Of a stretch of DNA of 64,000 nucleotides, positions 2,402 through 63,079 are shown in pieces; within the stretch, counting starts at the first letter, position 1, and every line of letters begins with the position of its first letter. Source of the DNA: Verrucomicrobiota bacterium. GTDB taxonomy: Bacteria; Verrucomicrobiota; Verrucomicrobiia; Limisphaerales; JAXMHQ01. The notes under the pieces are model-generated. The model saw nothing but the letters and a program-made list of their open reading frames with translations. It did no database searches and was not told the origin of the DNA. The DNA lies in NCBI GenBank assembly GCA_046346665.1, contig JAXMHQ010000011.1:55147-119146 (forward strand). The letters are read 5' to 3'. The translations under genes were made by a program, and so were the position numbers.

Positions 2402-2823
2402 TTTGTCCGGGAGTGCCGGCGTCCTCGCCGGCCCGCGCATGCTCCCGGGTGGGAACTTGAAGGAAAGCTCGACGCGAATTGGCGCGCATTCTCACGAATT
2501 GAAATCCATTGGCGATAATTCGCGTCAAAGCATTTCCGCCTTTTTGCCGGGACTTGCATTCAAAACCTCCCGGCGCAATACTCTTTCAGGTAATTTTTGT
2601 CTGCCAAACGGTTCCGCAACATGACGGGACCGGCGGGGGAACCGATTGTGGCCGGCTGGCGGCCTTGGGGCTGACGATGCATGGCATCGGGAACACTTAA
2701 TGGTTCCAGCCCGACAGCTAACCTCGCAGGCGCGAACATTAAGGGCGAATGGCGGATTCCATTTTCCCGCACCGGTGAACGCCGGGGCTTTCGCGCAATT
2801 GGTCACGAGTTGAGCCATTTGCA

Positions 2824-4635
2824 ATGGAAATCGGCACTCATCGCCCCCGCAACGTCGGCTGGGCCCGGGCCGCGGCGCTGCTCTACGGCGACTGGGGCAC
2901 CAGCAAAGCCTACGTCATCGGCCTCGCTTTCGTCGCGGCCGGCTATTCCTCGTTCCCCATCATCCTTGCCGTCTGCGCCCTGACCGGCCTGGTCGGATAC
3001 AATTACATCATCATCTGCCGCCATTTCCCTGACGGCGGGGGCGTGTATTCGGCCGCGCGAGAACAAAGTCGCGTCCTGGCCGTCCTCGGATCCCTCCTGC
3101 TCCTGGCCGATTTCATCGTCACGGCGGCGATGAGTTGCTGGGATGCGATGCTGTATTTCGGTGTGCCTGGGGAATACCTGCGGCTGGCGACGATCGGGTG
3201 CATTTTGCTTATCGGCTACATCAATTATTTCGGTCCGAAACACTCCGGCAGTTTAGCGGTCACGCTGGCCATTCCCATGGTGCTGGTGGTCGTTTTCATT
3301 GTGGCGCTCAGCGTTCCGCACCTGACGCTCGCGCACCTCGAGCGGCCGCATTCGAGTTTCCGCGCCAACTGGGTCGCGTTCGTCGGCGTCATCCTTGCCC
3401 TCAGCGGCGTCGAGGCCATCGCCAATCTCACCGGCGTCATGAAACTCGACCCGGACGCCACCGCGGATGCGCCGCGCGTCGCGTCCACGTCGAAGAAGGC
3501 CATCTGGCCGGTCGCCATCGAGGTTGTGCTCGGCACCGCGCTGCTTGGGTGGGCGATGTTGTCGCTCCCGCAAACCTTCTCGGATGAATTGAAAGCCCGT
3601 TACGGCGACATGCTGCGGTTCCTCGGCGAGGAATACGGCACGATGTTCTGGAACCCGCATTTCGGCCACGTCTTCGGCGCCATCATCGGCCTCGTCGTCG
3701 GCATGCTGCTGCTCAGCGCCGTCAACACCGCGGTGGCCGCGATGATCGGGCTCATGTACATGCTGGCGCAGGACAAGGAAATGCCGCGCCCCTTCACCAG
3801 GCTCAACACTCACGGCGTGCCCTGGCTGCCGCTCATCGTCGCCATCGCCCTGCCTTCCATCCTCGTGCTCATCTCCGGCAACCTGGACGACCTTGCGGAC
3901 ATGTATGCCATCGGCGTGGTGGGGGCGATCACTGTGAACCTCGGCTCAAGCTGCTTCAACAAGCGGCTCAAGCTGAACTGGCGCGAATTCAGCATCATGC
4001 TCGTCACGTTCTGCATCCTGTTCTGCATCGAGGTGACGATCGCCAAGACCAAACCCGCCGCGTTGTTCTTCGCGGCCTGCGTGCTCGGCATCGGGTTCGC
4101 CCTGCGCTGGTATTCCATGAAGCGCGCCGGGGTGGAGACGGTGATTCTCTCGCGCGAAATGGCGGCGGTGATCCGGCCCGAACTGATGGACACCCTGCGA
4201 CCGAACTTCGCCCCGGGCCAGGCCATCCTCGTCGCCGCCCGCGGCATCACGCCCGTGCTCAAGTTCGCCCTCGAGGAAGCCAAACTGCGCAAAGGCAACC
4301 TCTACGTCCTCTACGTGAAACAACTCTCCGTCAACCTGCCCGGGCCCCTCGCCAGCAAGGAGCGTCCGCGATGGCAGAACGACCCGAATGCCGCCACGAT
4401 CATGTACGGCATGTTCGACCTCGCCCACGAATCCGGGATCACCGTCCTGCCGCTTTACGCGGTCAGCGACAATCCCGCAGGCACCATCCTCGACATCACC
4501 GCCACCCTGGGCGTCGACATCCTCATGCTCGGTTCGCCTCATCGCGGCGCCCTGACCAAGCTGCTCCGTGGCGACGTCGTGACCGAGGTCGCGGCCAACC
4601 TGCCGGAGAACATTCAGCTCGTGATTCACAGCTGA
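2824..4635 (+). CDS. APC-superfamily transporter fused to a C-terminal universal stress protein (USP) domain
   Basis: 603-aa ORF. The N-terminal ~430 aa contain ~11-12 hydrophobic helices, with TM1 motif LYGDWGTSKAYVIGLAF. The C-terminal ~150 aa (ILVAARGITPVLKFALEEAKLRKGNLYVLYVKQ ... VDILMLGSPHRGALTKLLRGDVVTEVAANLPENIQLVI) match the USP alpha/beta pattern. Confidence 0.7.
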   Translation: MEIGTHRPRNVGWARAAALLYGDWGTSKAYVIGLAFVAAGYSSFPIILAVCALTGLVGYNYIIICRHFPDGGGVYSAAREQSRVLAVLGSLLLLADFIVTAAMSCWDAMLYFGVPGEYLRLATIGCILLIGYINYFGPKHSGSLAVTLAIPMVLVVVFIVALSVPHLTLAHLERPHSSFRANWVAFVGVILALSGVEAIANLTGVMKLDPDATADAPRVASTSKKAIWPVAIEVVLGTALLGWAMLSLPQTFSDELKARYGDMLRFLGEEYGTMFWNPHFGHVFGAIIGLVVGMLLLSAVNTAVAAMIGLMYMLAQDKEMPRPFTRLNTHGVPWLPLIVAIALPSILVLISGNLDDLADMYAIGVVGAITVNLGSSCFNKRLKLNWREFSIMLVTFCILFCIEVTIAKTKPAALFFAACVLGIGFALRWYSMKRAGVETVILSREMAAVIRPELMDTLRPNFAPGQAILVAARGITPVLKFALEEAKLRKGNLYVLYVKQLSVNLPGPLASKERPRWQNDPNAATIMYGMFDLAHESGITVLPLYAVSDNPAGTILDITATLGVDILMLGSPHRGALTKLLRGDVVTEVAANLPENIQLVIHS

Positions 4636-4637
4636 TT

Positions 4638-4665
4638 GGAGTGCGGAATGCGGAGTGCGGAATGC
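4638..4665. repeat. Perfect 2 x 14-nt tandem GGAGTGCGGAATGC ('CGGAATGCGGAGTG' word family)
   Basis: Read directly. Related words recur at 21583-21614 (inside a CDS) and 57526-57561 / 57672-57707. Followed by ATCCATCAATCC-type words at ~4690-4745, which also recur at 11050-11085 and 15985-16020. Confidence 0.85.
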
Positions 4666-8791: not shown

Positions 8792-8881
8792 AAGGATAAC
8801 GCGCGTTGATTTGAAATTGTTGCGTTTGGCTCAATTTGATCAACACCAAACCATAACCTTACATACAAATCCCCCACGCAC

Positions 8882-9931: not shown

Positions 9932-9966
9932 CAACGCGGCCCCTCACCGGGCCGCGTTGTTTTTTG
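9932..9966 (+). terminator. Rho-independent terminator after glnII
   Basis: Stem CAACGCGGCCC / GGGCCGCGTTG (9932-9942 / 9949-9959), loop CTCACC, then TTTTTT. Confidence 0.8.
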
Positions 9967-10146
9967 GGGGTGAAGTGATGGAGTGATGGAGTAGTGGAGT
10001 GGTGGAGTTACGTGCGGATCGTTCTCGTCCTCGTCCTCCTCCTCGTCCTCGAAAACAGGTCCCGAGGACGAGGACGAGCACGAGGACGAGCACGATGGGA
10101 TTTCGTTCCAGGATTCCATCACTCCAATTCGTCATTCGTCATTCGC
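9967..10146. repeat. Simple-word repeats and hairpin (GGAGTGATGGAGT words; CTCGTCCTCGTCC / GAGGACGAGGACGAG hairpin; GTCATTC x2)
   Basis: 10024-10051 pairs with 10063-10090 (~26 of 28 bp). Tandem GTGATGGAGT-type words at 9972-10005. A CGTCCTCGTC word also occurs at 16040-16070. Confidence 0.8.
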
Positions 10147-10202
10147 AATCCCCGGCGCCGTCGCGCTCTTGACCAGGCCAGACCGCCGGGTAGCTTGGTT
10201 CC

Positions 10203-15978: not shown

Positions 15979-16162
15979 GCAGGGGGGGATGGATTGATGG
16001 ATTAATGGATTAATGGATAGAAGGGAACACCGCGCTCGTAATCGTCCTCGTCGTCGTCCTCGTCCTCGGTTCCCAGTTCTGGCCCGGGCATCGAGGCCAG
16101 CGCTCCCCGACGGCATTTCCCCCGCTTGAATCCCGCCCCATTCGATCCTATTGTGCGCCCGC

Positions 16163-19100
16163 ATGTCGAAATCGTCACCGCCGCCCGCCATTCGGCTCCG
16201 CGGCGTTCGCCAGAATAACCTGAAGGGATTCGACCTGGACCTGCCGCAAAACCAGTTGATCGTCGTCACTGGTTTGAGCGGGTCCGGGAAAAGTTCCCTC
16301 GCCTTCGACACCCTCTTTGCCGAGGGGCAGCGGCGTTACATCGAGACCTTCTCCCCCTACGCCCGGCAGTTCTTCGACCGGATGGACAAGCCCCAGGTGG
16401 ATCGCATCGAGGGAATCCCGCCGGCCATCGCGATCGAACAGCGCAATTCCGTCCGGACGACGCGCTCCACCGTGGGGACGATGACGGAGATTTGCGATTA
16501 CATGAAGGTGCTGTGGCCGCACCTGGCCCGACTTCATTGCCGTTCCTGCGGACGGCCCGTCCGGAAAGAGGCGCCCGGGGATGTTTACGCCCGGTTCGAA
16601 GCCGTCGCCGCCGAAGTCCTGGTTGCCTTCGACCTGCCGTTGTCCGACAAACTGTCCCTGCAGGATTCGCTGGCGCTTGTGGCGAAGCAGGGATATCAAC
16701 GCCTGCTGGTCGACGGCCGGGTGATCCGGCTGGAGGAAGCTGCCGGGGCGCTGTCGAAACCGGACAAACTGCTCACGCTCACCCTGGTCCAGGACAGACT
16801 GCGGGCCGGCAAAGACACGCGCGCCCGGTTCGTCGAGGCTTGCGAGCAGGCTTATCATTTCGGCAAGGGCAAGCTCGCCATCCACACCGCCGACCCTCAG
16901 CAGGCCGGCGCCTGGAAGCTCACGCGACGGTTTTCGAACCGGCTGCATTGCGCCGATTGCGACCTGGATTACCGGGATCCATCCACGGCCTTGTTCAGTT
17001 TCAATCATCCGCTCGGCGCGTGTCCGTCGTGCAAGGGATTCGGCCGGATTATCACAATCGATTTCAACCTGGCGATACCGGACCGATCGCTGACGCTTGC
17101 TGCGGGCGCGGTGAAACCCTGGCGGAGCGGATTCAGCGCGGAATGCCAGAAGGATCTCGCCCGGTTCTGCAAAAAACGGGGCGTGCCCATGGACGTGCCG
17201 TTCAACAGGCTGCCGGCCGCGCAGCAGAAATGGGTGCTGGAAGGCGACGCCGGATACGGCAGCGACAAGGCTCACGAATGGCCGAACGCGTGGTACGGCG
17301 TCCAGGGCTACTTCCGCTGGCTCGAAGGCAAGTCCTACAAAATGCACGTGCGCGTGCTCCTGTCCCGATACCGTTCCTACGTGCCGTGCCCCGACTGCCG
17401 GGGCGCGCGCTTTCAGCCGGACGCGTTGTTGTATCGGCTCGACGGCGCCCCCGAGTCGGGGAAGGGGATGAGCCTGGCCGAGTTTTACCAGTTGCAGGTG
17501 CAGCAGGCGCGGCCGTTGCTGGAGAGTTTTCTGAAATCGCGGCGTTCCCGTTCGTCGTCACCATCCCGCAGCCCCGTGACGCTCGCGCTCGAGGAGGTCG
17601 TGTCGCGGCTGCAGTACCTCGACCAGGTCGGGCTTGGGTATCTCACGCTGGATCGCCCGACCCGCTCGCTCTCGGGCGGCGAGACGGAGCGGGTGAATCT
17701 CACCACCTGCCTCGGTACGCGGCTGGTTCACACGCTGTTCGTGCTCGACGAACCCAGCGTCGGCCTGCACGCGCGCGACACCGAGCGCCTGGTCGAAGTG
17801 CTGCTCCAGTTGCGCTCGGCCGGCAACACCGTCGTCGTGGTCGAACACGAACCCGCCGTCATGCGCGCGGCGGACCAGGTCATCGATCTCGGCCCCGGAC
17901 ACGGCGCTTCCGGCGGGAGCGTGCAATTCCAAGGCGCCTATCCTGAATTGCTGCGATGCGCGGAAAGTCTCACCGGCCAATACCTCTCGGGCCGGCGCCG
18001 GCAGGACCGGCCCCCGCGGCGGTCCGTCGCAGGAAACAAAGTGCCCTGGCTCATCGTGCACGAGGCCACGGCTCATAACCTGAAAGGTTTGCGGGTCGAC
18101 ATTCCCCTGCAGCGGCTGGTCTGTTTGAGCGGCGTCAGCGGCTCCGGCAAATCCACGCTGCTGCGCGATATCTTACTGCCCGCGCTCCAGCAGGCCCTGC
18201 ATTCCACGCCCGATTCGGGCGCGGGTGCGGACGAGGAAACCGATTCTCCCGATCCCGCAACCCCGGTCGTGCCCGCCGCGCGACTGGAAGGGTGCGGGCA
18301 CCTCGCGCGGGCCGTGTGGGTGGACCAGTCCAGTCTCGGCCGCACGCCTCGATCCAACCCGGCGGTGTACATCGGGGCGTTCGAGGAGATCCGGGATGTG
18401 TTCGCGCAGACGGAAGGCGCGCGCCGGCGCGGATTGAACTCGAGCGCGTTCAGCTTCAATTCCGGCCAGGGCCAGTGCGAACGCTGCCGCGGAGCGGGCT
18501 TCGAAAAAATCGAGATGCAATTTCTCAGCGATGTGTTTGTGCGCTGCCCGGAATGCAACGGCCGCCGTTACCGGCCGCACATTCTCGAGGTGAAATTGCG
18601 CGCCGCCGGCCGCGACTGGAGCATCGCCGACCTGCTGGAAAGCACGGTCGACGAGGCGGTCGGGGTGATGGCCGCTTTCGAAGGATCCCGCGCCGCGGCC
18701 CGCGCGCGGCAGAGGCTGGCGCTGCTTCAGGAAGTCGGTTTGGGTTATCTCAGCCTCGGACAACCCGTCAATACGCTGTCGGGTGGCGAAAGCCAGCGGC
18801 TGAAACTTGTGAGGCATCTTGTCGATGCCTCAGTCGAGAGTCGAGAGTCGAGAGTCGAGGGTAGGTTGGTTGCTGGCGCTCGACCTTCGACCCTCGACTC
18901 TCGACCGACCTTGTTCCTGTTCGACGAGCCGACGACGGGCCTGCATTTCGAGGACGTCCGCGTGTTGCTGAAAGTTTTTCAGCGGCTGGTGGACGCCGGG
19001 CATTCGGTCCTGGTGGTGGAGCACAACCTGGACGTGATCCGCGCGGCGGACTGGGTGATCGACCTGGGGCCGGAGGCGGCTGAGCGGGGCGGGACCATTG

Positions 19101-19195
19101 TGGCAGCGGGTCCGCCGGAAGTGATCATGGCGTGTGAAGCGAGCCACACCGGGCGCGCGCTGGGCCGGTCCCGGAGCCGGAAAGGACGCGCATGA
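16163..19195 (+). CDS. uvrA: UvrA-family ABC ATPase, divergent paralog 1 (retains an insertion-domain-sized segment)
   Basis: [34 protein letters not shown]. Zn modules CRSCG, CADCD...[17 protein letters not shown] and CERCRGAG...CPECNGRRY. Two LSGGE signatures and two Walker B motifs ([20 protein letters not shown]). Confidence 0.9.
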   Translation: [1010 protein letters not shown]

Positions 19196-21927
19196 TTTCG
19201 ATCCACGGCGCCCGCGAGCACAATCTGAAGGACATTTCGTTGGAGATCCCGACCGGCCGGTTTGTTGTGATCACAGGCGTGAGCGGTTCGGGCAAAAGCA
19301 CACTCGCGTTCGACCTGCTGTTCGCCGAGGGTCAGCGCCGGTTCCTGGATTCCATGAACCTTTATGCCCGGCAATTCGTGGAGCAACTGGCGCGGCCCGA
19401 TGTCGACCGCATCGCCGGGCTGCCGCCGACGGTCAGCATCGAGCAGCGCAATTCCCGCGGCGGCGGGAAAAGCACCGTCGCTACCGTGACCGAGGTGCAT
19501 CATTTTGTCCGGCTGCTGTTCGCCCGGTTGGGCGTCCAGCATTGCCCGGATTGCGGTGTGGCGGTCGAGGCGCAAACGCGCGACGCCCTGGCCCGGCGGC
19601 TGGAACAGGAAACCCGGAAGCGCGGCGACCTGCTGTTGTTGGCACCGGTTGTCCGCAACCGGAAAGGGTTTCATTCCGACATCGCGGCCTGGGCGGCGAA
19701 AGAGGGCTATGCCGAACTCCGCGCGGACGGACGGATGTATTCCACGGCGGAAAAATTCCGCCTGGACCGGTTCCGGGAACACAACATCGAAATCGTCACC
19801 GGCGTCCTGGAAAAGTCCCGCAAAAAACAACCGGGAGGGACGAGCTACCGCGAGTCCCTGGATAAAGCAGATCGGGGACTCGCAGGAGCTCGGCCCTCCG
19901 AATTGATTGACGCCACCCTGAAGCTGGGGCAGGGCACGTTGTTCGCGCTCGACAATCATGGCGTGCAGACAGTGTTTTCCACGGAGCGCTGCTGCCCGGA
20001 CTGCGGGAGGTCGTTCGAGCCGCTCGACCCGAAGCATTTCAGTTACAATTCGCCCCAGGGCTGGTGCCCGCGCTGCCGCGGGTTCGGCGAATTGTTTTAC
20101 ATGCCCGAAGATGTCGACCGCGGAGCGCGCGAGGATGCCATCGCAGAATCCTGGTACGGCTGGCATGAAGGCGAACGCGAATTGTGCCCCGACTGCGGCG
20201 GCGCGCGGCTGAATCCGGTCGCCCGAGCCGTCCGACTGCCCCACAATCTGAAATTTCAAATCTCAAATTTCAAATCATCCATCGACGCCGGGCTCACCCC
20301 GGTGGCCTTCGGGGCCTTGTCGGTTGCGGCCGCGGCGGAGTATTTTCAGTCGGTTCGATACCAGGGCCGCGAAGCCGAGATTGCGCGGGACATTCTTCCG
20401 GAGATCCGGGAGCGGCTGAAGTTTCTGTCCAGGGTGGGACTGGGTTACCTCGAACTCGGTCGCGGCGTGCCGACGCTTTCCGGCGGTGAAGCCCAGCGCA
20501 TCCGCCTGGCGGCGCAGCTCGGATCCAATCTCAGTGGCGTTTGTTACATTTTGGACGAACCCACCATCGGCCTGCACGCGCGCGACAACGACCTGCTGCT
20601 GGACACGCTGGAAACCCTGCGATCCAAGGGCAACTCGGTGTTGGTGGTGGAGCACGACGAGGAAACGATGCGGCGCGCGGACCATATCATCGATCTCGGC
20701 CCGGCGGCCGGCGTGCTGGGCGGCCGGGTGGTCGCGTCGGGAACGCTGGCCGAATTGATGCAGCACCCGGAATCCGTCACCGGCCAGTGCCTCCGCCAGC
20801 ACCGCAACTATCCGGCGCGCGGATCGCGCCGTCCTCTTTCGGATGCCGCCTGGCTGAGCCTGTCCGGCGCCGCCCGGCACACGTTGAAAAATCTCACCGC
20901 CCGGTTTCCGCTGGGCCGGCTCGTGTGCGTGACCGGGGTCAGCGGTTCGGGCAAGAGCACGCTGGTTCGCGAATGTCTTTTCCCGGCGCTCCAGGAAGCG
21001 CTTCGTAAACCCTCCCGATCACGCGCGGAAAAGGGCGCTGCTCCCGGCGCCGCGCGCCTCTCGGGCTTCGAATCCTTGAAAGCCGTTTACGAAGTCGATC
21101 AATCGCCCATCGGCCGCACCCCGCGGTCGATTCCGGCGACGTATGTCGGCTTTTTCGACGACATCCGCGCGTTGTTTGCGCAGGTGCCGGAGTCGCGGCT
21201 GCGGGGTTATTCGCCGGGACGATTTTCCTTCAACAGCCCGCAGGGGCGCTGCCCGGGATGCGACGGCGCGGGGCAGATCAAGCTGGAGATGAATTTCCTG
21301 CCGCCGGCGTTTGTGCCCTGCGAACAATGCGGCGGCACGCGGTTCAACGCGGAAACACTGGATATTGAATATCGCGGCCGCAACATCGCGCAGGTGCTGG
21401 AATTGTCGGTGACCGAGGCGTTGGAAGTGTTCGGCGGCATTCCCAAAATCCGCGCCGCGCTCCAGGCGCTGGTGGACACCGGCCTGGGTTATCTCAAGCT
21501 CGGCCAGCCGAGCCCGACGCTTAGCGGCGGCGAAGCCCAGCGCGTGAAACTCGTCACGCACCTGCTGACGGGACTCAAGGAAGTGCGGAGTGCCGAGAGG
21601 GGAGTGCGGAATGGCCAGGCGGGAAGTCCGTCCGCGAGCGTTTTCATCCTGGAAGAACCGACGATTGGATTGCACATGAGCGATGTGCGGCGGCTGGTGG
21701 AGGTGTTGCAGCGGCTCGTGGACGTCGGGCACACGGTTGTTGTCATTGAACATAATCTGGACCTGGTGGCGGAGGCGGACTGGGTGATCGATCTCGGGCC
21801 GGAAGGCGGGGCGGACGGGGGGCGGATTGTGGCCGAGGGCACGCCGGAGCAACTGGCGCGGGACGGAACGAAACGGGGCTCGCATACGGGACGGTATCTG
21901 GGCAAACTGCTGCCGCGCCCCGCGTGA
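19192..21927 (+). CDS. uvrA: UvrA-family ABC ATPase, paralog 2 (insertion domain reduced to ~25 aa)
   Basis: [51 protein letters not shown]. The start overlaps the upstream stop (ATGA, 19192-19195). [49 protein letters not shown] replaces the ~110-aa insertion domain that I recall from E. coli UvrA. Confidence 0.9.
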   Translation: [911 protein letters not shown]

Positions 21928-21945: not shown

Positions 21946-22437
21946 GTGCGCGACATGAGCGAGTCGTACGAAGAGATGCTGGAAGGAGAGAGGCTGATCC
22001 GCCGTCCGCCCGGCGCGCGGCACGAATTGATTTGCCGCCGCCTGTACGCGTGCGTGCTGGCCAGCGTGGCCAATTTCACCAGCACCCGGCTGTTGCCCGT
22101 GCGGTCGGAAGTGATCCTCGCCGCCGGGACGCGATTGCGTCCCGACCTCGCGCTGGTGGCTGAGCCGACCGGCAAACTCTGGCTCGCCGCCGAAGTGGTC
22201 AGCTCCGACGATCACCGCGTCGACACCGTGGTCAAAAAGGAGATTTACGAATCCACGAGGCTGCCGCGGTTGTGGATGGTGGATCCCCGTTATGACAACG
22301 TGGAGATCTACCATGGCACCGCGCACGGCCTCGTGTTGAAAGGCATTCTCGCCGGGCGCGAAACCCTCACCGAAAAGCTCCTGCCCGAGTTCGAACTCGC
22401 GATTTCGGAATTGTTCAAACCACCGGATCCCGCCTGA
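21946..22437 (+). CDS. Uma2-family (DUF820) PD-(D/E)xK nuclease-like protein
   Basis: GTG 21946 or ATG 21955, 19-28 nt after uvrA paralog 2. Pattern RPDLALV ... AAEVVSS ... VKKEIYESTRLPRLWMVDP matches the Uma2 D...E-x-x-S...K core. Confidence 0.75.
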   Translation: MRDMSESYEEMLEGERLIRRPPGARHELICRRLYACVLASVANFTSTRLLPVRSEVILAAGTRLRPDLALVAEPTGKLWLAAEVVSSDDHRVDTVVKKEIYESTRLPRLWMVDPRYDNVEIYHGTAHGLVLKGILAGRETLTEKLLPEFELAISELFKPPDPA

Positions 22438-22521: not shown

Positions 22522-22584
22522 AAAATTCACAATTATAGGACTGACCCCTTCGTCAAAGGGGTCAGTCCTATAATTGTGAATTTT
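22522..22584. repeat. Perfect 29-bp-stem AT-rich palindrome (possible bidirectional terminator or palindromic element)
   Basis: AAAATTCACAATTATAGGACTGACCCCTT (22522-22550), loop CGTCA, exact reverse complement at 22556-22584. Confidence 0.95.
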
Positions 22585-22704: not shown

Positions 22705-25700
22705 ATGAAGCGTGCGGTTGCCTTTTTGGGGCTGGGTATTTTGTCCGGCCTGGTATCCGGGGGTATGGCGCAGACGTTTGTCGGGTCGAACGTGCCGGGG
22801 CAGGGAACCAACTATACGTTCACCATCGGCGCCGGCGCGACCAACCTGTCGCTGGTCATCTCCAACAATGCGACGGCCTATTCCTATTTGCTGTTGAGCA
22901 AGGGCGGCGTGCCGACGGACGCGGCGTATGACTACGGGTCGCGGCTGGCAGGGGTGACGAACCGGATCAACCTGGAGCTCCCGGAATTTTCAACGGGCAG
23001 TTACGGACTCCGGGTGTCGACGCCTGCGGGGTCGCTGGCGCAATCGTTCACGGTGGTGTTGACGACCAATCGATCGGATTTGCGGACGGCGGCGAACCCG
23101 GTGTCGAAGCCGCTGGTGTTTTCCACGACGGGCTCCTTGACGAACACGGGATCGGGCGCGTGGCATTATTTCCAGGTGGACGTGGGGTCGAACCTGGTGA
23201 CGGGGTGGCGGATTGTTTTGAGTTCCACCAACGCGACGACGCCGGGGCTGTATGTGCGGCGGGGTCAATTGCCGAACACCGGGGCGTATGACAAGGCAGT
23301 GGCGCCCGGGCTGCCCGTGGAGACCATTACCTTTCGGGATTACGAGGCGACCAATTCGACTTATTTCATTGGGGTCTACCAGCCTTCCGGCGCGGCGAGC
23401 GTGGCCGGCTACACGCTGAGCGCGGAGCTGGCATCGGTGACCACGCTGACGTGGGATCCGGGGACGGCGGATGCGGGGACGCAGGTGTTCACGAACAAGA
23501 GCGTGACGGGGGGCGACTATTATTTTGCGATCACGACGCAGACGACGGCGGACCAGGTATGGCGGACGGCGTTGACGGTCGTGAGCAACGAGGCGGACGT
23601 GTACCTGGCCCTGGGGACGCTGCCGACGACGGGATCCTACGGTTACGCGTCGACGCGGGTGGGATCGGATGGTTTTGTGTTATCGCAGACCCATCAATGG
23701 ACGCCGGGGCAGACCTGGTATTTGATGGTGCATGCGGCGCCGGGGGCGCAATGGAGGCTGGTGACGGGCGAGGCGTATGTGCAGCCGCTGCCGGCGCTTG
23801 CGGCGGATGCGAGCAGCGGGGCGACGGCGGCGATCGGGCCGGAGGGGATGCGATTTTTCAAAACCACCATCACGACGAACACGCTGGCCTGGCGGCTGGG
23901 ATTGAACGGGCTGGGTAATCAACTGTATGTGAAGCAGTCCGCCGCGCCGCATCCGTACAGCACCTCCACCTATGACCTCACGCAGCCGGGCCAGATGCTG
24001 GTGGTGCCGACGTATCTCAATGTGGGCAGCCAGTATTTCGTTGGGGTCTCGGGCAACCCGGGTCAGGCCTTCACGCTGGATTCGAGGCAGCAGGCGGTGA
24101 CCAACCTGAATTTCAACGCAACGACGAATTTCACCGTCACGGGTTATGGTTACACGACGTTCCTGGTGCAGGTGCCCGTGCAGCAGATCGCGTGGCAGGT
24201 GAACGTGACACCGATTTCGGGCAACGCCAGCGTGGCGGTGCGGCGCGACAATGTGCCGAACGAATTCGTCAACGACGCCTTTTCCGAGCCGCCGGCCGGC
24301 ACGGGGGCGAGCCTGACGCTGGTGCCGCCGACCCTGAGCAACGGGTCGTTTTATGTGACGGTATACGGGACCGGGCCTTACACGGTGAGCCTGTTCAATG
24401 GCCAGCCGGTGATCACGACGGTGGATTATGTGTTCAACATCACCAACGACGCGCCGTCGCGGGTGGGCTGGCGGTATTACACCGTCATCAACACGGCCGA
24501 GCAGCTCAGCACGTTGGGCTGGGGTCTGGATCTTTCGAACCAGGTGCCGGGCACCATGATTGCCATCCGGCGCAACGCGGTTCCCGGGCAGTGGAATTAC
24601 AGGAACAATCCCTACGATTACTACGGCTCTTCGACATCCGGCTACATGGACCTGTCCGGGACGCTGGGTTTTCTTCAGCAGCCGAATCACCAGGCGGACG
24701 TCTGGTATATCGGGGTCTACACCCCGGCGGCGGCGCTGGGCAACTTTGTGCTGACCGGGTCGCAACTGACCGGTCCGCCGGTCGGATTCGACGGGTCGGG
24801 CAGCGCGATGAGCGTCACGAACCAGCCGTCAGGCAAATTCCAGTATTTCACTTTCACGGTGCCTTCCGGCGCGCTGGGCTGGGACGTGCGCCTGACGAAT
24901 GTGACCGCCGGCCAGCCCGCGCTCGTGGTGTGCCGCGACCAGTTGCCCTACGACCTGGGGACCCACACGTCGCAGGGATACGCGTGGTATCCTTACACGA
25001 CCACGACCTGGCTGAGCGGCAACCAGTGGGGCGCGGCCTATGATTGGACGAGTTATTATTACAGTCCCACCAACGGGATTCGCTATGGGCAGATGCTCGA
25101 AATGGGAATGGGAAATCCGCTCCAGCCGGGGACGTATTATGTCGGGGTGTTCAACTACGGCAGTTCCGGTCCGATGAGCTATACGCTCTGGAGCCGCGGC
25201 ATCGGTTCCGGGATGAGCATTCCGGTGAACACCTTGACATTCTCCAACGGCGTGGTGAGCAGTCCCGGCCTGCCGGCCGGCGAGGCGGCGTATTATTCCA
25301 TCGTGGTGCCGACGAACCTGCCGAGCTGGCGGCTGGAGTTGAACACCAACAGCGGCGAGAGCCTGTTGATGCTGCAAAAGGATTATTTGCCGAGTGTTTC
25401 CGCCGGCGGGGGTGCGCCTTACAATGTGAGTGGCGGCCGGAAACTGCAAAAATCCGGGAACGAGCAGTATCTCCTCATGCCCGCCTACAACCAGAGCAAC
25501 ATTGTGGCGGGCACCTATTATCTCGCGGTGGCCGCCGAGGGTCAGAATCCCTACAACTCCACCATCGGCAGCAATTCCAGCTCGTTCACCCTGCACAGTT
25601 ACGGCGTGCAGGGGGTGACGAACCTGGGCGCGGTGGATCCCACCGGCGTCACGGAGATCCTGGTGACCAACAGCAGCGAAGCCGGCCAGCTCAGCACGTT

Positions 25701-28700
25701 CCAGTTCAACGTGCCCGCCGGCACCCTCGGGTTCACCGTGTCGCTCTCGAACCGGGTCGGAAACCCCATGATGATCCTGCGGACGGATTCGCAACTGACG
25801 GGCGGCTACGACGGTTACGGGGTGGATGGCGGCCAAGGTTACAGTTGGGTGAATCAAAACATGATCAACCAGATCGATCCGCCCGTGACGAATTACACGT
25901 TGATGATCCAGGCGATTGCCTCCGGCGGGGACGCGAGTTATGTGCTGCACATCCGGGCGATGGGGGCGCAGCCGGTGACATTTGACGGCGGCAAATACAG
26001 CGTCACCAACCAGTTGATTGGCACATGGCGGTTCTTCAACATCACGGTTCCGCCGGATTCATTCGGCTGGGATGTCCGGCTGACCAACGTGACCAGCGGC
26101 GCGCCGGTGCTCGCCATCTGCCGCGATCTGGCGCCTTACGATCTCGGCACGCATACGCCGCAGGGTTACGCGTGGTATCCCTACCAGTCGACAACCTGGC
26201 CGAGCGGCAACCAATGGGGCGCGGGTTACGACTGGACCCAGTATTATTATGACCCGGACGGCACCGTCCGGTATGGGCAGATGCTGCAGATGGGGATGGG
26301 CAACCCGTTGCAGCCGGGCAACTACATTGTCGGAGTGATCAACAGCGGCGGCGCGGCGCCGATGAGCTACACACTGTGGAGCCGCGGCATCGGGACGAAT
26401 CAAACCATCCCGGTCGGGTCGCTGACATTCTCGAACGGTGTGGTCAGCAATCCCGCGTTGCTGGCGGGCGAGGCGGCCTATTATTCGATCGTCGTGCCGA
26501 CGAACCTGCCGAGCTGGCGCCTGGAGCTGAACACAAACGGCGGCGAAGGCGTGTTGATGCTGCAGAAGGATTACCTGCCGAATGTGTCCGCCGCGGGGGG
26601 CGTTCCCTACAATGTGAACGGCGGCAGGCGCATCCAGAAATCCGGCAACGAACAATACCTGCTGATGCCGGCTTACAACCAGTCGAACATCGTGGCGGGG
26701 ACGTATTACCTGGCGGTGGCCGCCGAAGGCCGGAATCCCTACAGCTCCTACATCGGCAGCAATTCGACCACGTTCACCCTGCACAGCTACGGCGTGCTCG
26801 GCGTCACGAACGTGGGAACGGTGGACAACACCGGCCTGACGGACATTCTGGTAACCAACAGCGCCGAAGCCGGACAGTTGAACGCCTACGAGTTTGTCGT
26901 TCCACCGGGAACGCTCAGCCTGACGCTGTCGCTGTCGAACCGCGTCGGCAGCCCCATCATGATTCTGCGCACCGGGTCCCAGTTGACGGGGGGCTACGAT
27001 GGCTACGGCGTGGATGGCGGACAGAGTTACAGCTGGGTGAATCAGAACCTGATCAACATCGCCAACCCGGTCGCGACGAATTACACCATCATGATCCAGG
27101 CGATTGCATCCGGGGGCGACGCGAGTTGCGTGCTTTACCTGCATGCGCAGGGGCCCCAGCCGGTGGGATTTGACGGGGGCAGTTACCCGGTCGTGGGCCA
27201 GTCGCTGAACACCTGGCGTTACTTCAGCGTGACGGTCCCGGCGACCGCGTTCGGCTGGGATCTCCGGTTGACGAACATCACCAGCGGATCGCCGGGCCTG
27301 GCGGTTTGCCGCGACCTGACACCGTCCGACCTCGGCACGCACACTTCCCAGGGCTACGCCTGGTATCCCCAGCTGTCGACCAGTTGGCCCAGCGGGAACC
27401 AGTGGGGCGCCGGGTATGATTGGACCCAATATTATTACGACCCCAACGGGGCGGTCCGGTATCAGCAAACCTTGCAGATGGGAATGGGCAACCCCCTGCA
27501 GCCGGGCAACTACATTGTCGGCGTGATCAACAACGGCGGCAGCGCTGCGATGAGTTACACGTTGTTGAGCCGCGGCATCGGCACCAACCTGTCCATCCCG
27601 ATCCTGCCGCTTGTGTTCACGAACGGCGCGATCACCAATTCCGGGTTGCTCGGCCGCGACGCGGCGTATTACTCGATCGTGGTTCCAACAAATCTGCCCT
27701 CGTGGTCGCTTGAATTGAGCAACGGGGTGGGTGAATCCCTGCTCATGCTGCAGAAGGATTATCTCCCGAGCGTGGCGGCGGCCGGCGCGGCGCCTTACAC
27801 GGTCAACGGCGGAAAACGAATGCAAAAACCCGGCAATGAACAATACACGATGCTGCCCGTGTCCGGACAATCGAACATCGCCGCCGGCACCTATTACATC
27901 GCGATCGCCAGCGAGGGCATGAATCCCTACAACTCGTATCTCGGGACCAACTCGAGTTCATTCGTCCTTTACAGTTACGGCGTGAAAGGCGTGACCAACT
28001 TCGGACCGGTGGGAGGCGTCGACCTGCTGTCCACCAACACCCTGCGCGGCGGCCAGGACGCGTTCTATCGGTTCAACATACCGAACGGCGCTCAAGCGGT
28101 CGAGGTGCGCCTGGACAACGTGACGGGAGGGCCCTACCTGACCCTGGCCGCGGGGAGCAATCTGCCGACGCCGTATTACAATTACGGCTATGACGGCGGC
28201 GTGCCTTACAGTTGGTATTCGCCGACGCTCATCACGCTGCCCAACCCGGTGTTCACGAATTACAGCCTCACGCTGCAGGCATCGGCCAATGTCTCGAGCA
28301 CTTACCTGGACGCGCAGGCGACAGTGCATATCCGTCAAATGCCGGTGCCGCAACTCGCGTTCGACGGGAGCTTGAATGGCGGGGGAGTGTCGAACAGCGC
28401 CAGCGACACGGTGATCAACGGGCAAAGCGCGTTTTACCAGGTCACCGTCCCCGCAACGCTGAACGGCCAGCCGGTGATCGGCTGGAAGCTCGACCTCATC
28501 GCCAGTGTCGGGTCGCCCAGCCTTAGGGTCCGTCCCGGCGCGCTGCCGGACGATTATAACTCCTACTACGACGGCACCACGCCCTGGGTGAAGCCGGAGG
28601 CAATCATTGTGCCGCCATTCCTGACCCCGGGAACCTGGTACATTGAGGTGCGTGGATCGGGCATCAGCACCTACACCCTGACCAGCAGCGCGCTGCAACT

Positions 28701-30108
28701 CAAGCGCCCGGCCTGGATCATGCCGCCCGTTGGCGGCCTGGTCACGACACCGGGATTGCCCTCGGCCGGTCCGCTGTTTGGCGACACAGGTGTTGATACC
28801 AACGGCGTGCCGCTGGCGGGCGACCAGGGGATCGACCTGGCACAGGGCGCATTCGATTATTACGCCATCGTGGTTCCCGCCAACAACACCGCCGTGCTTC
28901 GAACCCGGCTGGACGCCATCAGCGGCAATCCAAATCTTTTCATCCGCGTCGGCGCCCCGTCCACGCTCAGCCACTATTTGAATGGCAGCTCTGGCGCGAC
29001 GTTGTATGATCGGTCGCTAAACGCCAGCGGGGGCAGCGAGTATGGCAATTGGGTTCCGCTCAACGGCCGGTTTGAGGTCGCCCTCACCAGCGGCACCTGG
29101 TACGTGGCGGTGCAGGCGGGCGGCAATTCAAACGTCCGCTACCGGTTGCGGTTCGACACCGGCACGATCAAACCCCTCGCGTTGAACGGCGGCAGTTACT
29201 CCGCCCAGACGCTGGTGGCCGGCGACTTCGCCTATTATGCCGTTCAGATTCCCTCCAATGCGCCGCTTTCCTGGAACATTACCTACAGCGTCCAGTTCGG
29301 CAACATGGTGGTGTCCATCCGCGACCGCGTCCCGCCGGGCCAGGCCACGACGACCTCCGACTTCCGCGACTGGAGCTCCGGCCTGGACAGCAAGAACGCG
29401 GGGCCGTATCCGTCCTACAGTCTGCCCGGCACCTACACGGTCCATTCCCCGCCGCTGCGCCCGGGCAACACATATTATCTCGGGTTCCGCGCGCTGATCG
29501 ACTCGACATTCGCGCTGAGCTGCAACACGAATGTTGGCACGATCGATTTCACCAACGTCATCCCGTTCTATCACGGGTTCGCTTCCAGCAACCTGCCGGC
29601 GTTTGGATCGGTGAAATACCGTGTGGATGTTCCGCCGGACGCGGTGCGATGGATTCATTTCTGCACCAATGCGTCGTCGGTGTGGCTCTACCTGGAGCAG
29701 GGAACGGTGCCGACGCTGACGACATCGGATCACTGGTACGCCCAATACGCGAACAACTCGCTGAACCTCTTTCTCCAGACGCCGGGTTTCTGGCCGTGGC
29801 AGCCGGGGTATTCGTATTACCTGGTGGCGACCAACACCAGCGGCGCCGTCCAGCCGTTCACTCTCGTGTTGAACGGGGAAGGCCCGGGATCGGGACCGTT
29901 CGGATTCACGAACTCGGTCTACCTCGGCGGCGGGAGTGTCCAGCTCGGAATCTACCTGGTTCCAGGCCTGACTTACGCACTTCAGACCTCGACCAACCTG
30001 GTGAACTGGACCGTGGTGAACACGCTGACTCCCGTGACGAACCTGCTGTATTACACCGACACCCAACCCGTACAGCCCGCGCGGTTCTACCGGCTGCTGG
30101 AACAGTAG
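22705..30108 (+). CDS. Giant secreted protein (2467 aa) built of ~20 PPC-like (pre-peptidase C-terminal/collagenase-type) beta-sandwich domains, with a C-terminal FYRL domain
   Basis: Signal peptide MKRAVAFLGLGILSGLVSGGMAQ. The recurring pattern x-Y-[YF]-x-[FIV]-x-V-P ... W-x-[LV]-x-L ... [LV]-x-[VLM]-x-[RK] appears about every 120-130 aa. No catalytic motifs seen. Confidence 0.8.
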   Translation: MKRAVAFLGLGILSGLVSGGMAQTFVGSNVPGQGTNYTFTIGAGATNLSLVISNNATAYSYLLLSKGGVPTDAAYDYGSRLAGVTNRINLELPEFSTGSYGLRVSTPAGSLAQSFTVVLTTNRSDLRTAANPVSKPLVFSTTGSLTNTGSGAWHYFQVDVGSNLVTGWRIVLSSTNATTPGLYVRRGQLPNTGAYDKAVAPGLPVETITFRDYEATNSTYFIGVYQPSGAASVAGYTLSAELASVTTLTWDPGTADAGTQVFTNKSVTGGDYYFAITTQTTADQVWRTALTVVSNEADVYLALGTLPTTGSYGYASTRVGSDGFVLSQTHQWTPGQTWYLMVHAAPGAQWRLVTGEAYVQPLPALAADASSGATAAIGPEGMRFFKTTITTNTLAWRLGLNGLGNQLYVKQSAAPHPYSTSTYDLTQPGQMLVVPTYLNVGSQYFVGVSGNPGQAFTLDSRQQAVTNLNFNATTNFTVTGYGYTTFLVQVPVQQIAWQVNVTPISGNASVAVRRDNVPNEFVNDAFSEPPAGTGASLTLVPPTLSNGSFYVTVYGTGPYTVSLFNGQPVITTVDYVFNITNDAPSRVGWRYYTVINTAEQLSTLGWGLDLSNQVPGTMIAIRRNAVPGQWNYRNNPYDYYGSSTSGYMDLSGTLGFLQQPNHQADVWYIGVYTPAAALGNFVLTGSQLTGPPVGFDGSGSAMSVTNQPSGKFQYFTFTVPSGALGWDVRLTNVTAGQPALVVCRDQLPYDLGTHTSQGYAWYPYTTTTWLSGNQWGAAYDWTSYYYSPTNGIRYGQMLEMGMGNPLQPGTYYVGVFNYGSSGPMSYTLWSRGIGSGMSIPVNTLTFSNGVVSSPGLPAGEAAYYSIVVPTNLPSWRLELNTNSGESLLMLQKDYLPSVSAGGGAPYNVSGGRKLQKSGNEQYLLMPAYNQSNIVAGTYYLAVAAEGQNPYNSTIGSNSSSFTLHSYGVQGVTNLGAVDPTGVTEILVTNSSEAGQLSTFQFNVPAGTLGFTVSLSNRVGNPMMILRTDSQLTGGYDGYGVDGGQGYSWVNQNMINQIDPPVTNYTLMIQAIASGGDASYVLHIRAMGAQPVTFDGGKYSVTNQLIGTWRFFNITVPPDSFGWDVRLTNVTSGAPVLAICRDLAPYDLGTHTPQGYAWYPYQSTTWPSGNQWGAGYDWTQYYYDPDGTVRYGQMLQMGMGNPLQPGNYIVGVINSGGAAPMSYTLWSRGIGTNQTIPVGSLTFSNGVVSNPALLAGEAAYYSIVVPTNLPSWRLELNTNGGEGVLMLQKDYLPNVSAAGGVPYNVNGGRRIQKSGNEQYLLMPAYNQSNIVAGTYYLAVAAEGRNPYSSYIGSNSTTFTLHSYGVLGVTNVGTVDNTGLTDILVTNSAEAGQLNAYEFVVPPGTLSLTLSLSNRVGSPIMILRTGSQLTGGYDGYGVDGGQSYSWVNQNLINIANPVATNYTIMIQAIASGGDASCVLYLHAQGPQPVGFDGGSYPVVGQSLNTWRYFSVTVPATAFGWDLRLTNITSGSPGLAVCRDLTPSDLGTHTSQGYAWYPQLSTSWPSGNQWGAGYDWTQYYYDPNGAVRYQQTLQMGMGNPLQPGNYIVGVINNGGSAAMSYTLLSRGIGTNLSIPILPLVFTNGAITNSGLLGRDAAYYSIVVPTNLPSWSLELSNGVGESLLMLQKDYLPSVAAAGAAPYTVNGGKRMQKPGNEQYTMLPVSGQSNIAAGTYYIAIASEGMNPYNSYLGTNSSSFVLYSYGVKGVTNFGPVGGVDLLSTNTLRGGQDAFYRFNIPNGAQAVEVRLDNVTGGPYLTLAAGSNLPTPYYNYGYDGGVPYSWYSPTLITLPNPVFTNYSLTLQASANVSSTYLDAQATVHIRQMPVPQLAFDGSLNGGGVSNSASDTVINGQSAFYQVTVPATLNGQPVIGWKLDLIASVGSPSLRVRPGALPDDYNSYYDGTTPWVKPEAIIVPPFLTPGTWYIEVRGSGISTYTLTSSALQLKRPAWIMPPVGGLVTTPGLPSAGPLFGDTGVDTNGVPLAGDQGIDLAQGAFDYYAIVVPANNTAVLRTRLDAISGNPNLFIRVGAPSTLSHYLNGSSGATLYDRSLNASGGSEYGNWVPLNGRFEVALTSGTWYVAVQAGGNSNVRYRLRFDTGTIKPLALNGGSYSAQTLVAGDFAYYAVQIPSNAPLSWNITYSVQFGNMVVSIRDRVPPGQATTTSDFRDWSSGLDSKNAGPYPSYSLPGTYTVHSPPLRPGNTYYLGFRALIDSTFALSCNTNVGTIDFTNVIPFYHGFASSNLPAFGSVKYRVDVPPDAVRWIHFCTNASSVWLYLEQGTVPTLTTSDHWYAQYANNSLNLFLQTPGFWPWQPGYSYYLVATNTSGAVQPFTLVLNGEGPGSGPFGFTNSVYLGGGSVQLGIYLVPGLTYALQTSTNLVNWTVVNTLTPVTNLLYYTDTQPVQPARFYRLLEQ
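24778..28341 (+). repeat. Three tandem ~1.19-kb coding super-repeats (398/396/394 codons) inside the giant gene
   Basis: Units start at 24778 (PVGFDGSGSAMSV), 25972 (PVTFDGGKYSV) and 27160 (PVGFDGGSYPV). The next unit boundary is at 28342 (PVPQLAFDGS). Each unit holds three PPC-like domains. By-eye protein identity is ~70-80% between units 1 and 2 and lower for unit 3. Confidence 0.9.
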
Positions 30109-39245: not shown

Positions 39246-39336
39246 GGAGAGATGGCTGAGTGGTTTAAAGCGCACGCCTGGAAAGCGTGAGTAGGTCAAA
39301 AGCCTACCGGGGGTTCGAATCCCCCTCTCTCCGCCA
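39246..39336 (+). tRNA. tRNA-Ser (anticodon GGA), CCA encoded
   Basis: Acceptor GGAGAGA/TCTCTCC. Anticodon arm CACGC-CTGGAAA-GCGTG. Long variable arm (TAGG...CCTA). T arm GGGGG-TTCGAAT-CCCCC. Discriminator G followed by CCA. Confidence 0.95.
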
Positions 39337-39549
39337 GTCTTCGCTCGCCGCGTAGCAAAAGCGAAGACTGCCGCGCCGTAGTGAAACGCAGGCGGGCGGG
39401 GAGCGAAAGTGGTTGCGATGTCGGCGAGCTACGACCGGGCATACCAGTTCTGCGAAGTAGTTTCAACGGGATTTCCGATGGGGGTTCTCTACGCGTGCAT
39501 TCCACCAAGCAGGTCCGATCCACACCGTTTTTATGTGGGTTCCAGCTCC

Positions 39550-39610
39550 AAATGTTGAATGTCTAGATGTGACACCAGGTCCCGGTGTCACATCTAGACA
39601 TTCAACATTT
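39550..39610. repeat. Perfect 27-bp-stem AT-rich palindrome
   Basis: AAATGTTGAATGTCTAGATGTGACACC (39550-39576), loop AGGTCCC, exact reverse complement at 39584-39610. Lies between tRNA-Ser (+) and the 3' end of the minus-strand Mla operon. Confidence 0.95.
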
Positions 39611-39713
39611 GGGCGGGGGGACGGGAAAAAAACTGTTTTCGGATCCGTGTGAATCCGTGTGATCCGTGGTTAAAAAGGGTTTTGGTTTGAGTCTCCTGAC
39701 GTCGACGCCTACA

Positions 39714-57463: not shown

Positions 57464-57525
57464 ATGATTCAGCCGAAACTAATGCAACCACCTCGACCCG
57501 GCAAGGCAGTTCGGAAGCGCGGAGC

Positions 57526-57707
57526 GCGGAATGCGGAATGCGGAATGCGGAATCCTGGCGGATTTGCCTCGTTCTCTTGTAGGAGCCGACGTAAGGAGGC
57601 TCTAACTTATAAGTAAAAACGGAAGCGTGAGCCTCCTGACGTCGGCTCCAACAATTGGACGTAAAAGCGGCCCGCCAGGATTCCGCGTTCCGCACTCCGC
57701 ATTCCGC
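57526..57707. repeat. Nested double hairpin (outer ~36-bp CGGAATGCGG-word stem, inner 21-bp GGAGCCGACGTnAGGAGGCTC stem)
   Basis: Outer arms 57526-57561 / 57672-57707, with a 15-bp perfect core GCGGAATCCTGGCGG / CCGCCAGGATTCCGC. Inner arms 57582-57602 / 57629-57649 with one mismatch. A half-copy of the inner word lies at 39689-39713. Confidence 0.9.
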
Positions 57708-57710
57708 ATT

Positions 57711-62853: not shown

Positions 62854-63008
62854 GGAGGCAACATTAACTCCTCGACGGCGAAATTCAAGCTCCGGCAGAG
62901 AGGCGTAATGTCTTAATTTGAATTCGCGTCTTCGAGCGATCAGACGGTTTGGTAGGGCGCCGCTCCGCGGCGCCGGCCGCGCGGAGCGCAGCCCTGCCGC
63001 GGCAGGTT

Positions 63009-63068
63009 CGCGGTAGCTCGTCCCTCCCGGGAGTGGAGAGGCACAGTCGGGAGGGACGAGCTACCGCG
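63009..63068. repeat. Perfect 21-bp-stem hairpin (CGCGGTAGCTCGTCCCTCCCG word)
   Basis: Arms 63009-63029 / 63048-63068. The 27-mer at 63048-63074 is identical to 19832-19858 inside uvrA paralog 2. Preceded by the CTGCCGCGGCAG palindrome (62994-63005) and a CGCTCCGCG/CGCGGAGCG hairpin. Confidence 0.9.
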
Positions 63069-63079
63069 AGTCCCCATCC

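Follow-up and report, generated by a model that had tools for sequence, protein, structure and literature searches.

Short dispersed repeats, some with tandem-heptamer arms, appear to be trapped in permissive loops of a uvrA-like gene pair in Limisphaerales

Short palindromic repeats that lie within bacterial reading frames have been described before. Di Nocera, De Gregorio and Rocco (2013, BMC Genomics 14:522; PMC3733652) catalogued repetitive extragenic palindromic sequences (REPs) of the GTAG/CGTC type and found some of them wholly inside open reading frames (ORFs), where they account for 7-30 aa. Many of the host genes act in replication or excision repair, and a bias towards excision repair and recombination was noted. 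The largest number of intragenic cases was in the verrucomicrobium Opitutus terrae, in which each of two uvrA genes holds two inserts: Oter_2709 (1995 aa) at residues 638-644 and 1601-1623, and Oter_3168 (999 aa) at residues 224-239 and 440-462. A location in flexible linkers was proposed for intragenic REPs, and mutator effects were speculated upon (PMC3733652). Rickettsia palindromic elements (RPEs; Ogata et al. 2000), the classic earlier example, are, in the accounts given in PMC3733652 and PMC10969869, selfish palindromes that sit in frame in many functional genes, presumably where the fold tolerates them. Arrays of heptameric simple sequence repeats (SSRs) are known from large GC-rich bacterial genomes and from cyanobacteria, including Xanthomonas and Nostoc, with four units preferred and a mostly non-coding location (Rehm et al. 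2015, PMC4692102), and TAACTGA heptamer repeats occur in Beggiatoaceae (PMC4679880). Here we describe a stretch of 64,000 nucleotides from a Verrucomicrobiota genome (the window; assembly GCA_046346665.1, contig JAXMHQ010000011.1, positions 55,147 to 119,146) in which two adjacent uvrA-like genes, P1 and P2, carry four in-frame repeat elements, named a to d. Our reading, to which we give a probability of roughly 75%, is that dispersed repeats have been trapped in permissive loops of these genes and turn over there.

The locus resembles the Opitutus terrae case in its phylum, its gene family and its kind of repeat: mostly intergenic palindromes, often dimers, that are inserted in frame and twice per gene. 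Oter_2709 is a 1995-aa double UvrA that looks much like a fusion of P1 with P2. An initial annotation of this DNA, made from the sequence alone, had called such insertions rarely documented; this was overstated, as PMC3733652 had already described REPs read in frame within the two uvrA genes of Opitutus terrae. The phenomenon itself is known from that study and from RPEs, and the present case is another instance, of modest novelty. New are the hairpin type with heptamer arms, the order-wide map of insertion hot spots and the finding that element a has arms conserved at the nucleotide level. The 2013 study compared single genomes, and did not cover turnover at hot spots among orthologs, homology of sites between paralogs or nucleotide conservation of repeat arms.

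P1 (16163-19195, + strand, 1010 aa) hosts element a, and P2 (19192-21927, + strand, 911 aa) hosts elements c, d and b. The two genes are arranged head to tail, with the ATG of P2 overlapping the stop codon of P1 (ATGA). Both proteins exceed the curated cut-off of 730 bits for the UvrA family TIGR00630 (909 bits for P1 and 973 bits for P2), and both score below the cut-off of the stricter model NF001503. Each has two ABC ATPase modules with Walker A, signature and Walker B motifs, as well as the zinc modules, and each aligns over its full length to solved UvrA structures, with E-values of 1e-212 (P1) and 5e-242 (P2). Pfam places the UvrB-binding domain (UvrA_inter) of P1 at residues 163-243 and its insertion domain (UvrA_DNA-bind) at residues 300-364; in P2 it detects the UvrB-binding domain and no UvrA_DNA-bind domain. 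The proteins are identical to entries from a metagenome-assembled genome at NCBI (P1 to P0001, P2 to P0121), their best relatives belong to the Verrucomicrobiota, order Limisphaerales, at about 65% identity, and the G+C content of the window is about 63%. P1 and P2 form a single ORF of 1976-2145 aa in seven genomes (L006, L009, L010, L023, L032, L050 and L054), and these fusions resemble Oter_2709. Fused homologs of about 1750 aa with 47-50% identity also occur in Proteobacteria and Desulfobacterales, and in some relatives a 66-aa DUF3185 gene lies between P1 and P2, or P2 is not adjacent. The overlap of the two genes, their fusion elsewhere and the missing insertion domain of P2 suggest that P1 and P2 may form an obligate heterodimeric "double UvrA".

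Element a (18830-18908, + strand, P1 residues ~891-915) is a hairpin with arms made up of heptamers in tandem, (GTCGAGA)n on one side and (CYTCGAC)n on the other, with TCGA recurring every 7 nt. The run of three GTCGAGA units and one GTCGAGG begins at 18833, and the 16-bp perfect stem 18847-18862 / 18890-18905 is present as annotated. The inverted repeat in full spans 18830-18859 / 18879-18908, with 30-nt arms that are 87% complementary, and Tandem Repeats Finder (TRF) reports period 7 at 18832-18859 and 18879-18906. The predicted fold has a minimum free energy (MFE) of -52.2 kcal/mol and a z-score of -5.15, and none of 200 shuffled sequences was as stable. The element lies between the signature-II helix and the Walker-B strand of P1.

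Element c (19825-19908, + strand, P2 residues ~214-237) is an imperfect hairpin with 34-nt arms, 19825-19858 and 19875-19908, that are 79% complementary (MFE -49.0, z -7.65). It had been annotated as a 9-bp hairpin; the 9-bp inner stem is there, as part of this larger structure. Positions 19832-19858 in its 5' arm are identical over 27 of 27 nucleotides to 63048-63074, 43 kb away, as the initial annotation had stated, and a 26-mer search of the window with element c gave two matches where none is expected. The distant copy belongs to an intergenic hairpin at 63008-63074 (placed on the gene map, no strand assigned), which has a perfect 22-bp stem, an MFE of -59.7 and a z-score of -9.1, and carries the element c unit in the opposite order of arms. 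Within P2, element c sits at the distal end of the UvrB-binding domain, where the Pfam match stops at residue 213. The variant found at this site is unique to the window and related families occupy the site in other genomes; element c looks recently written or overwritten.

Elements d and b are arrays with a single arm. Element d (20245-20278, + strand) is AT-rich and has period 7, (AAATYTC) x ~4.6, with AAATTTCAAATC twice at 20251-20276; it encodes NLKFQISNFKSS at P2 residues 352-363, and TRF finds 4.6 copies at 20245-20276. It does not fold as a hairpin (z -1.4) and has no inverted partner. An apparent further copy at 8808 proved to be a single chance 12-mer and was discarded, and the window holds no second copy of the element d word. 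Near-identical peptides are present in the nearest P2 homologs (P0128, P0155 and P0159). Element b (21580-21614, + strand) is a degenerate array of the GGARTGC family that encodes EVRSAERGVRNG at P2 residues 797-808; four of its five in-register heptamers match GGARTGC with at most one mismatch, and it too is not a hairpin and has no inverted partner (z +0.7). The annotated term "hairpin words" therefore suits elements a and c, and not b and d, which are one-armed heptamer arrays. Relatives of P2 carry EVRSEKGEGR...PSPFSLHTS at the place of element b, with counterparts in P0128, P0148, P0152, P0155 and P0159, and back-translation suggests that in these relatives the site encodes both arms of a hairpin (EVRSEKGEGR / PSPFSLHTS).

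Runs of the GGARTGC type occur in the window only at element b and at two intergenic places (4631-4665 and 57514-57712), and such runs arose in none of 40 Markov simulations. One of these, (GGAGTGC GGAATGC) x2 at 4638-4665 (+ strand), follows directly on the stop codon of an ORF at 2824-4635. The other is a nested palindrome at 57516-57712 (no strand assigned), in which arms of (GCGGAAT)x5 at 57516-57557 and 57680-57712 enclose a GTAG-type REP dimer at 57570-57661; it lies between two genes in convergent or tandem arrangement.

The positions of the four elements were examined in AlphaFold models and by alignment to solved UvrA structures, and every element falls in a low-confidence loop. The model of P1 has a mean predicted local distance difference test score (pLDDT) of 80.2 and falls below 50 at residues 894-911, between the signature-II helix (874-897) and the Walker-B strand (916-921). 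The model of P2 has a mean pLDDT of 72.5, with values below 50 at residues 353-364 (element d) and 797-811 (element b) and near 50 at residues 211-230 (element c). All four loops are flanked by confident secondary structure, and every element corresponds to a gap in the solved reference structures. In the alignment of P1 with P2, element b faces element a, both being in the loop between signature II and Walker B, and element d faces the P1 segment after "LLYRL" (near residue 426; P1 424-434). The insertion twice at a homologous loop that the initial annotation described is thus borne out, as are its coordinates and peptides for all four elements and the preservation of the reading frame by all four insertions. 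On these models, the elements would be translated as disordered surface peptides.

An alignment of orthologs shows gain and turnover at the same loops. From 80 species-representative Limisphaerales loci we obtained 79 P1 and 25 P2 orthologs. About eight hot spots of hypervariable length punctuate P1, near window residues 146, 195, 247, 426, 461, 621, 813 and 893, within a core of 894 well-aligned columns. Between the signature and Walker B, the linker of the C-terminal module varies from 26 to 97 aa, and that of the N-terminal module has a fixed length of 22 aa. Five sites of P2 behave likewise, and three of these are homologous to P1 hot spots. Judging from coordinates, the Oter_2709 inserts at 638-644 and 1601-1623 may lie near the inter-ATPase-linker hot spots of P1 (~621) and P2 (~551). 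The P1 inserts are recognizable translations of repeat DNA, read in one of the frames that it leaves open, and they fall into several families: VGDDVRSL...PHVVSY, from GTAG-type REP dimers like that at 57570-57661; VISESVISNQ...SLITDSLITD; ECGDLSPL...GDKSPHSK; NAERGTGNAE...ALRTPHSAL, of the GCGGAAT family; and VESRESRVE...RPSTLDPR, of the element a family. The last of these, as VESRESRVEG...RPSTLDxR, was met again in 10 P1 homologs out of a further 52, and L018, L006 and L013 have it as well.

Turnover is apparent on a neighbour-joining tree, where sister genomes that are 87-89% identical carry unrelated inserts at one loop and a bare 13-aa linker is widespread. Inserts of the repeat type recur at these loops across about 200 genomes and contigs that were assembled independently. 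In L056 a 38-nt arm recurs, with one mismatch, at two hot spots of one gene. The sisters L051 (8629-8760) and L053 (8737-8859), separated by a dS of 0.44, each have a hairpin at one shared P1 hot spot, with heptamer units that differ concertedly in both arms, CAGTGTT/AACACTG in one and TAGTGAT/ATCACTA in the other, which reflects either overwriting by a genome-specific variant or a structure-preserving change. The slot after "ARAVRL" in P2 (window 20221-20280) has a constant length of 13 aa in 7 of 25 orthologs; among the window, L001, L002, L005 and L019 it is built of AAATYTC in the window, GGAGTGC in L001 and AATTCAA in L005, and this looks like replacement without change of length. A further peptide, L-x-L-[NH]-[DE]-A-x-P, recurs in the inserts of about 20 P1 orthologs and is absent from the window; it appears at two different hot spots, the inter-ATPase linker (L011, L014, L034, L045, L058, L059, L061, L072 and L075) and the site near residue 461 (L047, L052 and L056), and either a short linear motif or a translated repeat of a further family could account for it. 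The collection of 5.8 billion proteins held no relative closer than about 67-73% protein identity, so the insertions cannot be dated by near relatives. Of the invading words described in the initial annotation, only element c, in its particular variant, looks recent. The other three are no fresh arrivals: subsets of orthologs share them with the same boundaries, and they are inherited, b and d in decayed form.

We quantified repeats inside and outside genes over the window and the 80 ortholog loci, as strong hairpins and as period-7 arrays of at least three units, each per kb. Hairpins were counted by a direct inverted-repeat scan of whole loci; an earlier procedure, in which inserts were cut out by alignment occupancy and folded, truncated the stems and gave weak z-scores (median -0.2), and was replaced. 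Intergenic DNA contains 0.275 hairpins/kb and 0.066 arrays/kb, and coding sequences (CDS) other than uvrA contain 0.059 and 0.037. The core of P1 has 0.017 hairpins/kb and that of P2 0.018, both with no array. In the variable blocks the densities are 0.53 hairpins/kb and 1.61 arrays/kb for P1, and 1.44 of each for P2. Only period 7 is enriched there; periods 6 and 8 are not. Arrays are present in 33 of 81 genes, at up to 9 per gene and with 89 distinct units, and they are 3-6 units long, mostly four (57 of 138 arrays). Hairpins inside the genes match intergenic ones in their dimensions, with a stem of about 22 bp, about 8% mismatch, a loop of about 21-27 nt and a total length of about 75-80 nt. 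Within the window itself, 10 of the 12 strong hairpins are intergenic and the remaining two are elements a and c; some 6.9 kb of intergenic DNA accounts for 10 hairpins and 4 arrays, and the 5.8 kb of uvrA for 2 and 3, respectively.

The element a word is also dispersed beyond this order-level sample. A scan of metagenome contigs for (GTCGARR)3GTCGA returned at least 120 loci. Among the matches listed, 67 are in non-coding DNA or short ORFs, 53 are in long coding-like ORFs, and none is in a uvrA-like gene; the idea that uvrA is the main home of these heptamer arrays, prompted by their density in its variable blocks, was accordingly dropped. Among the same matches, 31 of the 53 are located well within the ORF, where the translation reads VESRESRVE or RPSTLDPRPSTL. 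The hosts listed include an alpha-2-macroglobulin, Mfd/TRCF, a KS-AT linker of a polyketide synthase, two UbiD homologs, an FHA protein and a MiaB-like enzyme, and among these matches the insertions in host genes fall mostly between Pfam domains. The excision-repair gene Mfd/TRCF carries the word in frame near residue 1142 (L110, 2748-6704), and the two UbiD homologs, from different contigs (L097 and L103), carry it at one same site.

Like REPs, the repeats described here are multi-copy, dispersed and mostly intergenic, to judge from the intergenic copy of element c, the ten intergenic hairpins of the window and the metagenome matches to the element a word. Elements a (with GTCGAGA / CTCGACC units), b and d, however, bear no GTAG/CGTC tag and so are not REPs of that type, and in element c GTAG is confined to the stem: on the opposite strand its unit is GGGACTCGCG-GTAG-CTCGTCCCTCCCG, with GTAG lying in the paired arm. 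RPEs, as far as the accounts cited above describe them, are ~100-150 bp long, encode family consensus peptides, belong to the reduced genomes of intracellular alpha-proteobacteria and are not built of tandem heptamers; the present elements measure 35-84 nt, belong to Verrucomicrobiota and have no sequence relation to RPEs, and the two are alike only in how they work. Nor are elements a and c miniature inverted-repeat transposable elements, as they consist essentially of stem plus a 16-19-nt loop with no flanking direct duplication. Heptameric SSRs, defined by at least three tandem 7-nt units, are represented at 18832-18859, 18879-18906 and 20245-20276 by TRF, and by four of five units in 21580-21614. 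The likeness extends to the shortness of the arrays, the preference for four units, and a dispersed distribution with an excess in non-coding DNA near the ends of ORFs. Unlike those SSRs, the arrays here are commonly inverted pairs that form hairpins, draw on about 89 units and are concentrated in the loops of one gene family. The part of the literature that we covered contains no account of hairpins in Verrucomicrobia whose arms are tandem heptamers.

Thirteen orthologous copies of element a, for nine of which the DNA was additionally retrieved, were used to ask whether the hairpin is maintained. Pairing in the four 6-bp helices is 79.8%, compared with about 30% in slid registers. Compensatory covariation is absent in this set: pairing reaches 80.1% after random exchange of the 3' letters between copies, the covariation score (0.107) is level with that of shuffled data (0.108), and the covariation term of RNAalifold is unfavourable. 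The fold is nearly lost in L203, L204 and L208. In L202 all four 3' units read CTCGCC and not CTCGAC, a concerted change. Every codon position is conserved in the arms (0.65-0.85), compared with 0.45-0.49 in the loop, and conservation is highest in the TCGA cores. We see no positive evidence for selection on base pairing itself. In our reading, the arm sequence would be kept by something other than the protein; candidates could be homogenization, within arrays or from dispersed copies, or selection at the nucleotide level.

Taken together, the evidence favours the following course of events. The genome would hold families of short dispersed repeats, mostly intergenic, some of them REP-like palindromes and others hairpins whose arms are tandem arrays of 6-8-nt units, chiefly heptamers. 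Copies would have entered both uvrA-like genes at a handful of structurally permissive loops, and would have been retained only where the frame was preserved and no stop codon arose. Retained copies would be read as disordered surface peptides, each with a net gain of about 12-24 residues, and are probably translated and nearly neutral for the protein. Throughout Limisphaerales, and in P1 and P2 alike, these loops serve as enduring hot spots, where elements are inherited, decay (b and d having lost an arm) and are replaced or re-homogenized by the genome's own repeat families (c and b). The elements are presumably mobile, and copying could proceed by transposition by some enzyme or by gene conversion between dispersed copies. 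The view that permissive loops of intact genes house dispersed repeat words is thus upheld by the retained motifs and purifying selection, the low-pLDDT loops, the intergenic and metagenome relatives and the turnover among orthologs. Several observations weigh on the other side. Screening eight small ORFs of the window with Pfam revealed no transposase, whether of the REP-associated tyrosine (RAYT/Y1) type or another, and no target-site duplication flanks 18830-18908 or 19825-19908. The element a word has no second copy elsewhere in the 64-kb window: its four matches, against 0.13 expected, all lie inside the element itself. Because at least 13 orthologs share element a with identical boundaries and nearly the same length, its "invasion" would be an old or site-specific event. 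Third positions in its arms are conserved at 0.66, compared with 0.54 in the gene core (resampling P ~0.007), which is unexpected for a purely neutral passenger unless the arms are re-homogenized. About 51 kb of other CDS in the window contain no hairpin and no array, and uvrA approaches intergenic density, which permissiveness alone does not explain.

The repeats might instead have arisen where they stand, if the loops were fast-evolving low-complexity linkers that acquired periodicity and palindromy by local replication slippage and template switching, which would correct quasi-repeats and quasi-palindromes, with nothing imported. The concerted change of units within one arm in L202 would be expected on this account, and the lack of another window copy of element a, its identical boundaries in 13 orthologs and the 13-aa slot at site d that is filled by differing heptamer units all speak for it. 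An origin in place does not readily yield the 27/27 match of element c to an intergenic copy 43 kb away, the element a word in at least 120 unrelated metagenome contexts, or the near-identical 38-nt arm at two hot spots of one gene in L056. Nor would it lead one to expect that in-gene and intergenic hairpins share their dimensions, or that the array of element b fits the window's own intergenic GGAGTGC family when its relatives, by back-translation, seem to be of the GGAGTGA type. We regard such an origin as unlikely. We are slightly more doubtful of a selected nucleic-acid function, in which hairpins in mRNA or DNA tune the expression or processing of uvrA, or heptamer arrays, whose unit length is not divisible by 3, serve as frameshift switches that turn repair off and on and so produce mutators. 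The conservation of element a arms at all codon positions, with third positions above the core while the loop drifts, points that way, as do the preference for repair genes here (uvrA and Mfd) and in PMC3733652 and the enrichment of period 7 alone in the variable blocks. The missing covariation and the hairpins largely lost in L203, L204 and L208 argue against a function of the fold, however, and many orthologs make do with the bare 13-aa linker or carry families unrelated to those of a sister genome in the same loop. Arrays of 3-6 units, mostly four, are short for efficient slippage; among the 80 loci no ortholog is frameshifted at an array, and the one split gene, L074, has an in-frame stop. 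A search of Rfam gave no match at the uvrA genes.

Decay under relaxed selection, which the initial annotation had raised as an alternative, and assembly artefact remain to be weighed. In their favour are the origin of the window in a metagenome-assembled genome and the lack of an insertion domain in P2. Relaxed selection is rejected because the motifs are all intact and selection on the family is purifying: both reading frames are uninterrupted, the Walker A/B, signature and zinc-finger residues do not vary across 53 P1 and 59 P2 homologs, and core-codon dN/dS is 0.06-0.16 over nine P1 and five P2 ortholog pairs, values that describe the family, since dS is saturated in comparisons involving the window genes themselves. 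Sequencing or assembly error at these sites is contradicted by the similar inserts, in the same loops, of the ~200 independently assembled genomes and contigs. We consider decay or artefact very improbable. The trapping of dispersed repeats in permissive loops, with turnover, thus remains our preferred reading. A bolder reading, which we regard as a long shot, is that the heptamer-armed hairpins, with TCGA or other cores recurring every 7 nt and about 89 unit variants, are an undescribed class of self-propagating or self-homogenizing repeats of Verrucomicrobiota, and that their strong concentration in the uvrA family and other excision-repair genes (Mfd) reflects targeting or selection at the nucleic-acid level and not only tolerance. 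If this were so, the repeats might persist by attenuating or modulating the repair that would act on hairpin or slipped DNA, or the 7-nt arrays might act as frameshift switches that produce transient mutators; the excess conservation of element a arms at synonymous sites would be its first trace.

Other features of the window were recorded alongside these elements. Intergenic DNA at 9960-10150 and 15987-16069 contains period-8 arrays (AGTGATGG and ATGGATTA) and a period-7 array (ATTCGTC), together with period-6 TCGTCC / CGAGGA units arranged as a palindrome with 34-nt arms, and one such cluster lies directly upstream of P1. A gene for a Uma2-family putative endonuclease (21946-22437) directly follows P2 and precedes a 2467-aa ORF (22705-30108). 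Two long palindromes of other families, perfect or near-perfect, occur at 22522-22584 and 39548-39612: one has 29-bp AT-rich arms and lies between the Uma2-family gene and the 2467-aa ORF, and the other has 32-bp arms that are 97% complementary. A c-di-AMP riboswitch at 2592-2748 (+ strand; 51 bits against a gathering score of 38) stands upstream of the ORF at 2824-4635, and a tRNA gene is located at 39246-39333 (+ strand).

The bias towards the uvrA family, a strong sink for these repeats, the accumulation there of 7-nt units only, and the conservation of the arm sequences are the only parts of the finding that may lead somewhere new. For the family, the survey shows that defined loops of a conserved repair ATPase absorb genomic repeats repeatedly and without loss of the gene, as seen in the ~200 independently assembled genomes and contigs, and the hot spots provide a natural map of insertion-tolerant sites in UvrA. 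They are also a warning for the annotation and the alignment-based phylogeny of Verrucomicrobiota proteins. The locus strengthens the unexplained observation of 2013 that excision-repair genes are favoured by intragenic palindromic repeats (PMC3733652).

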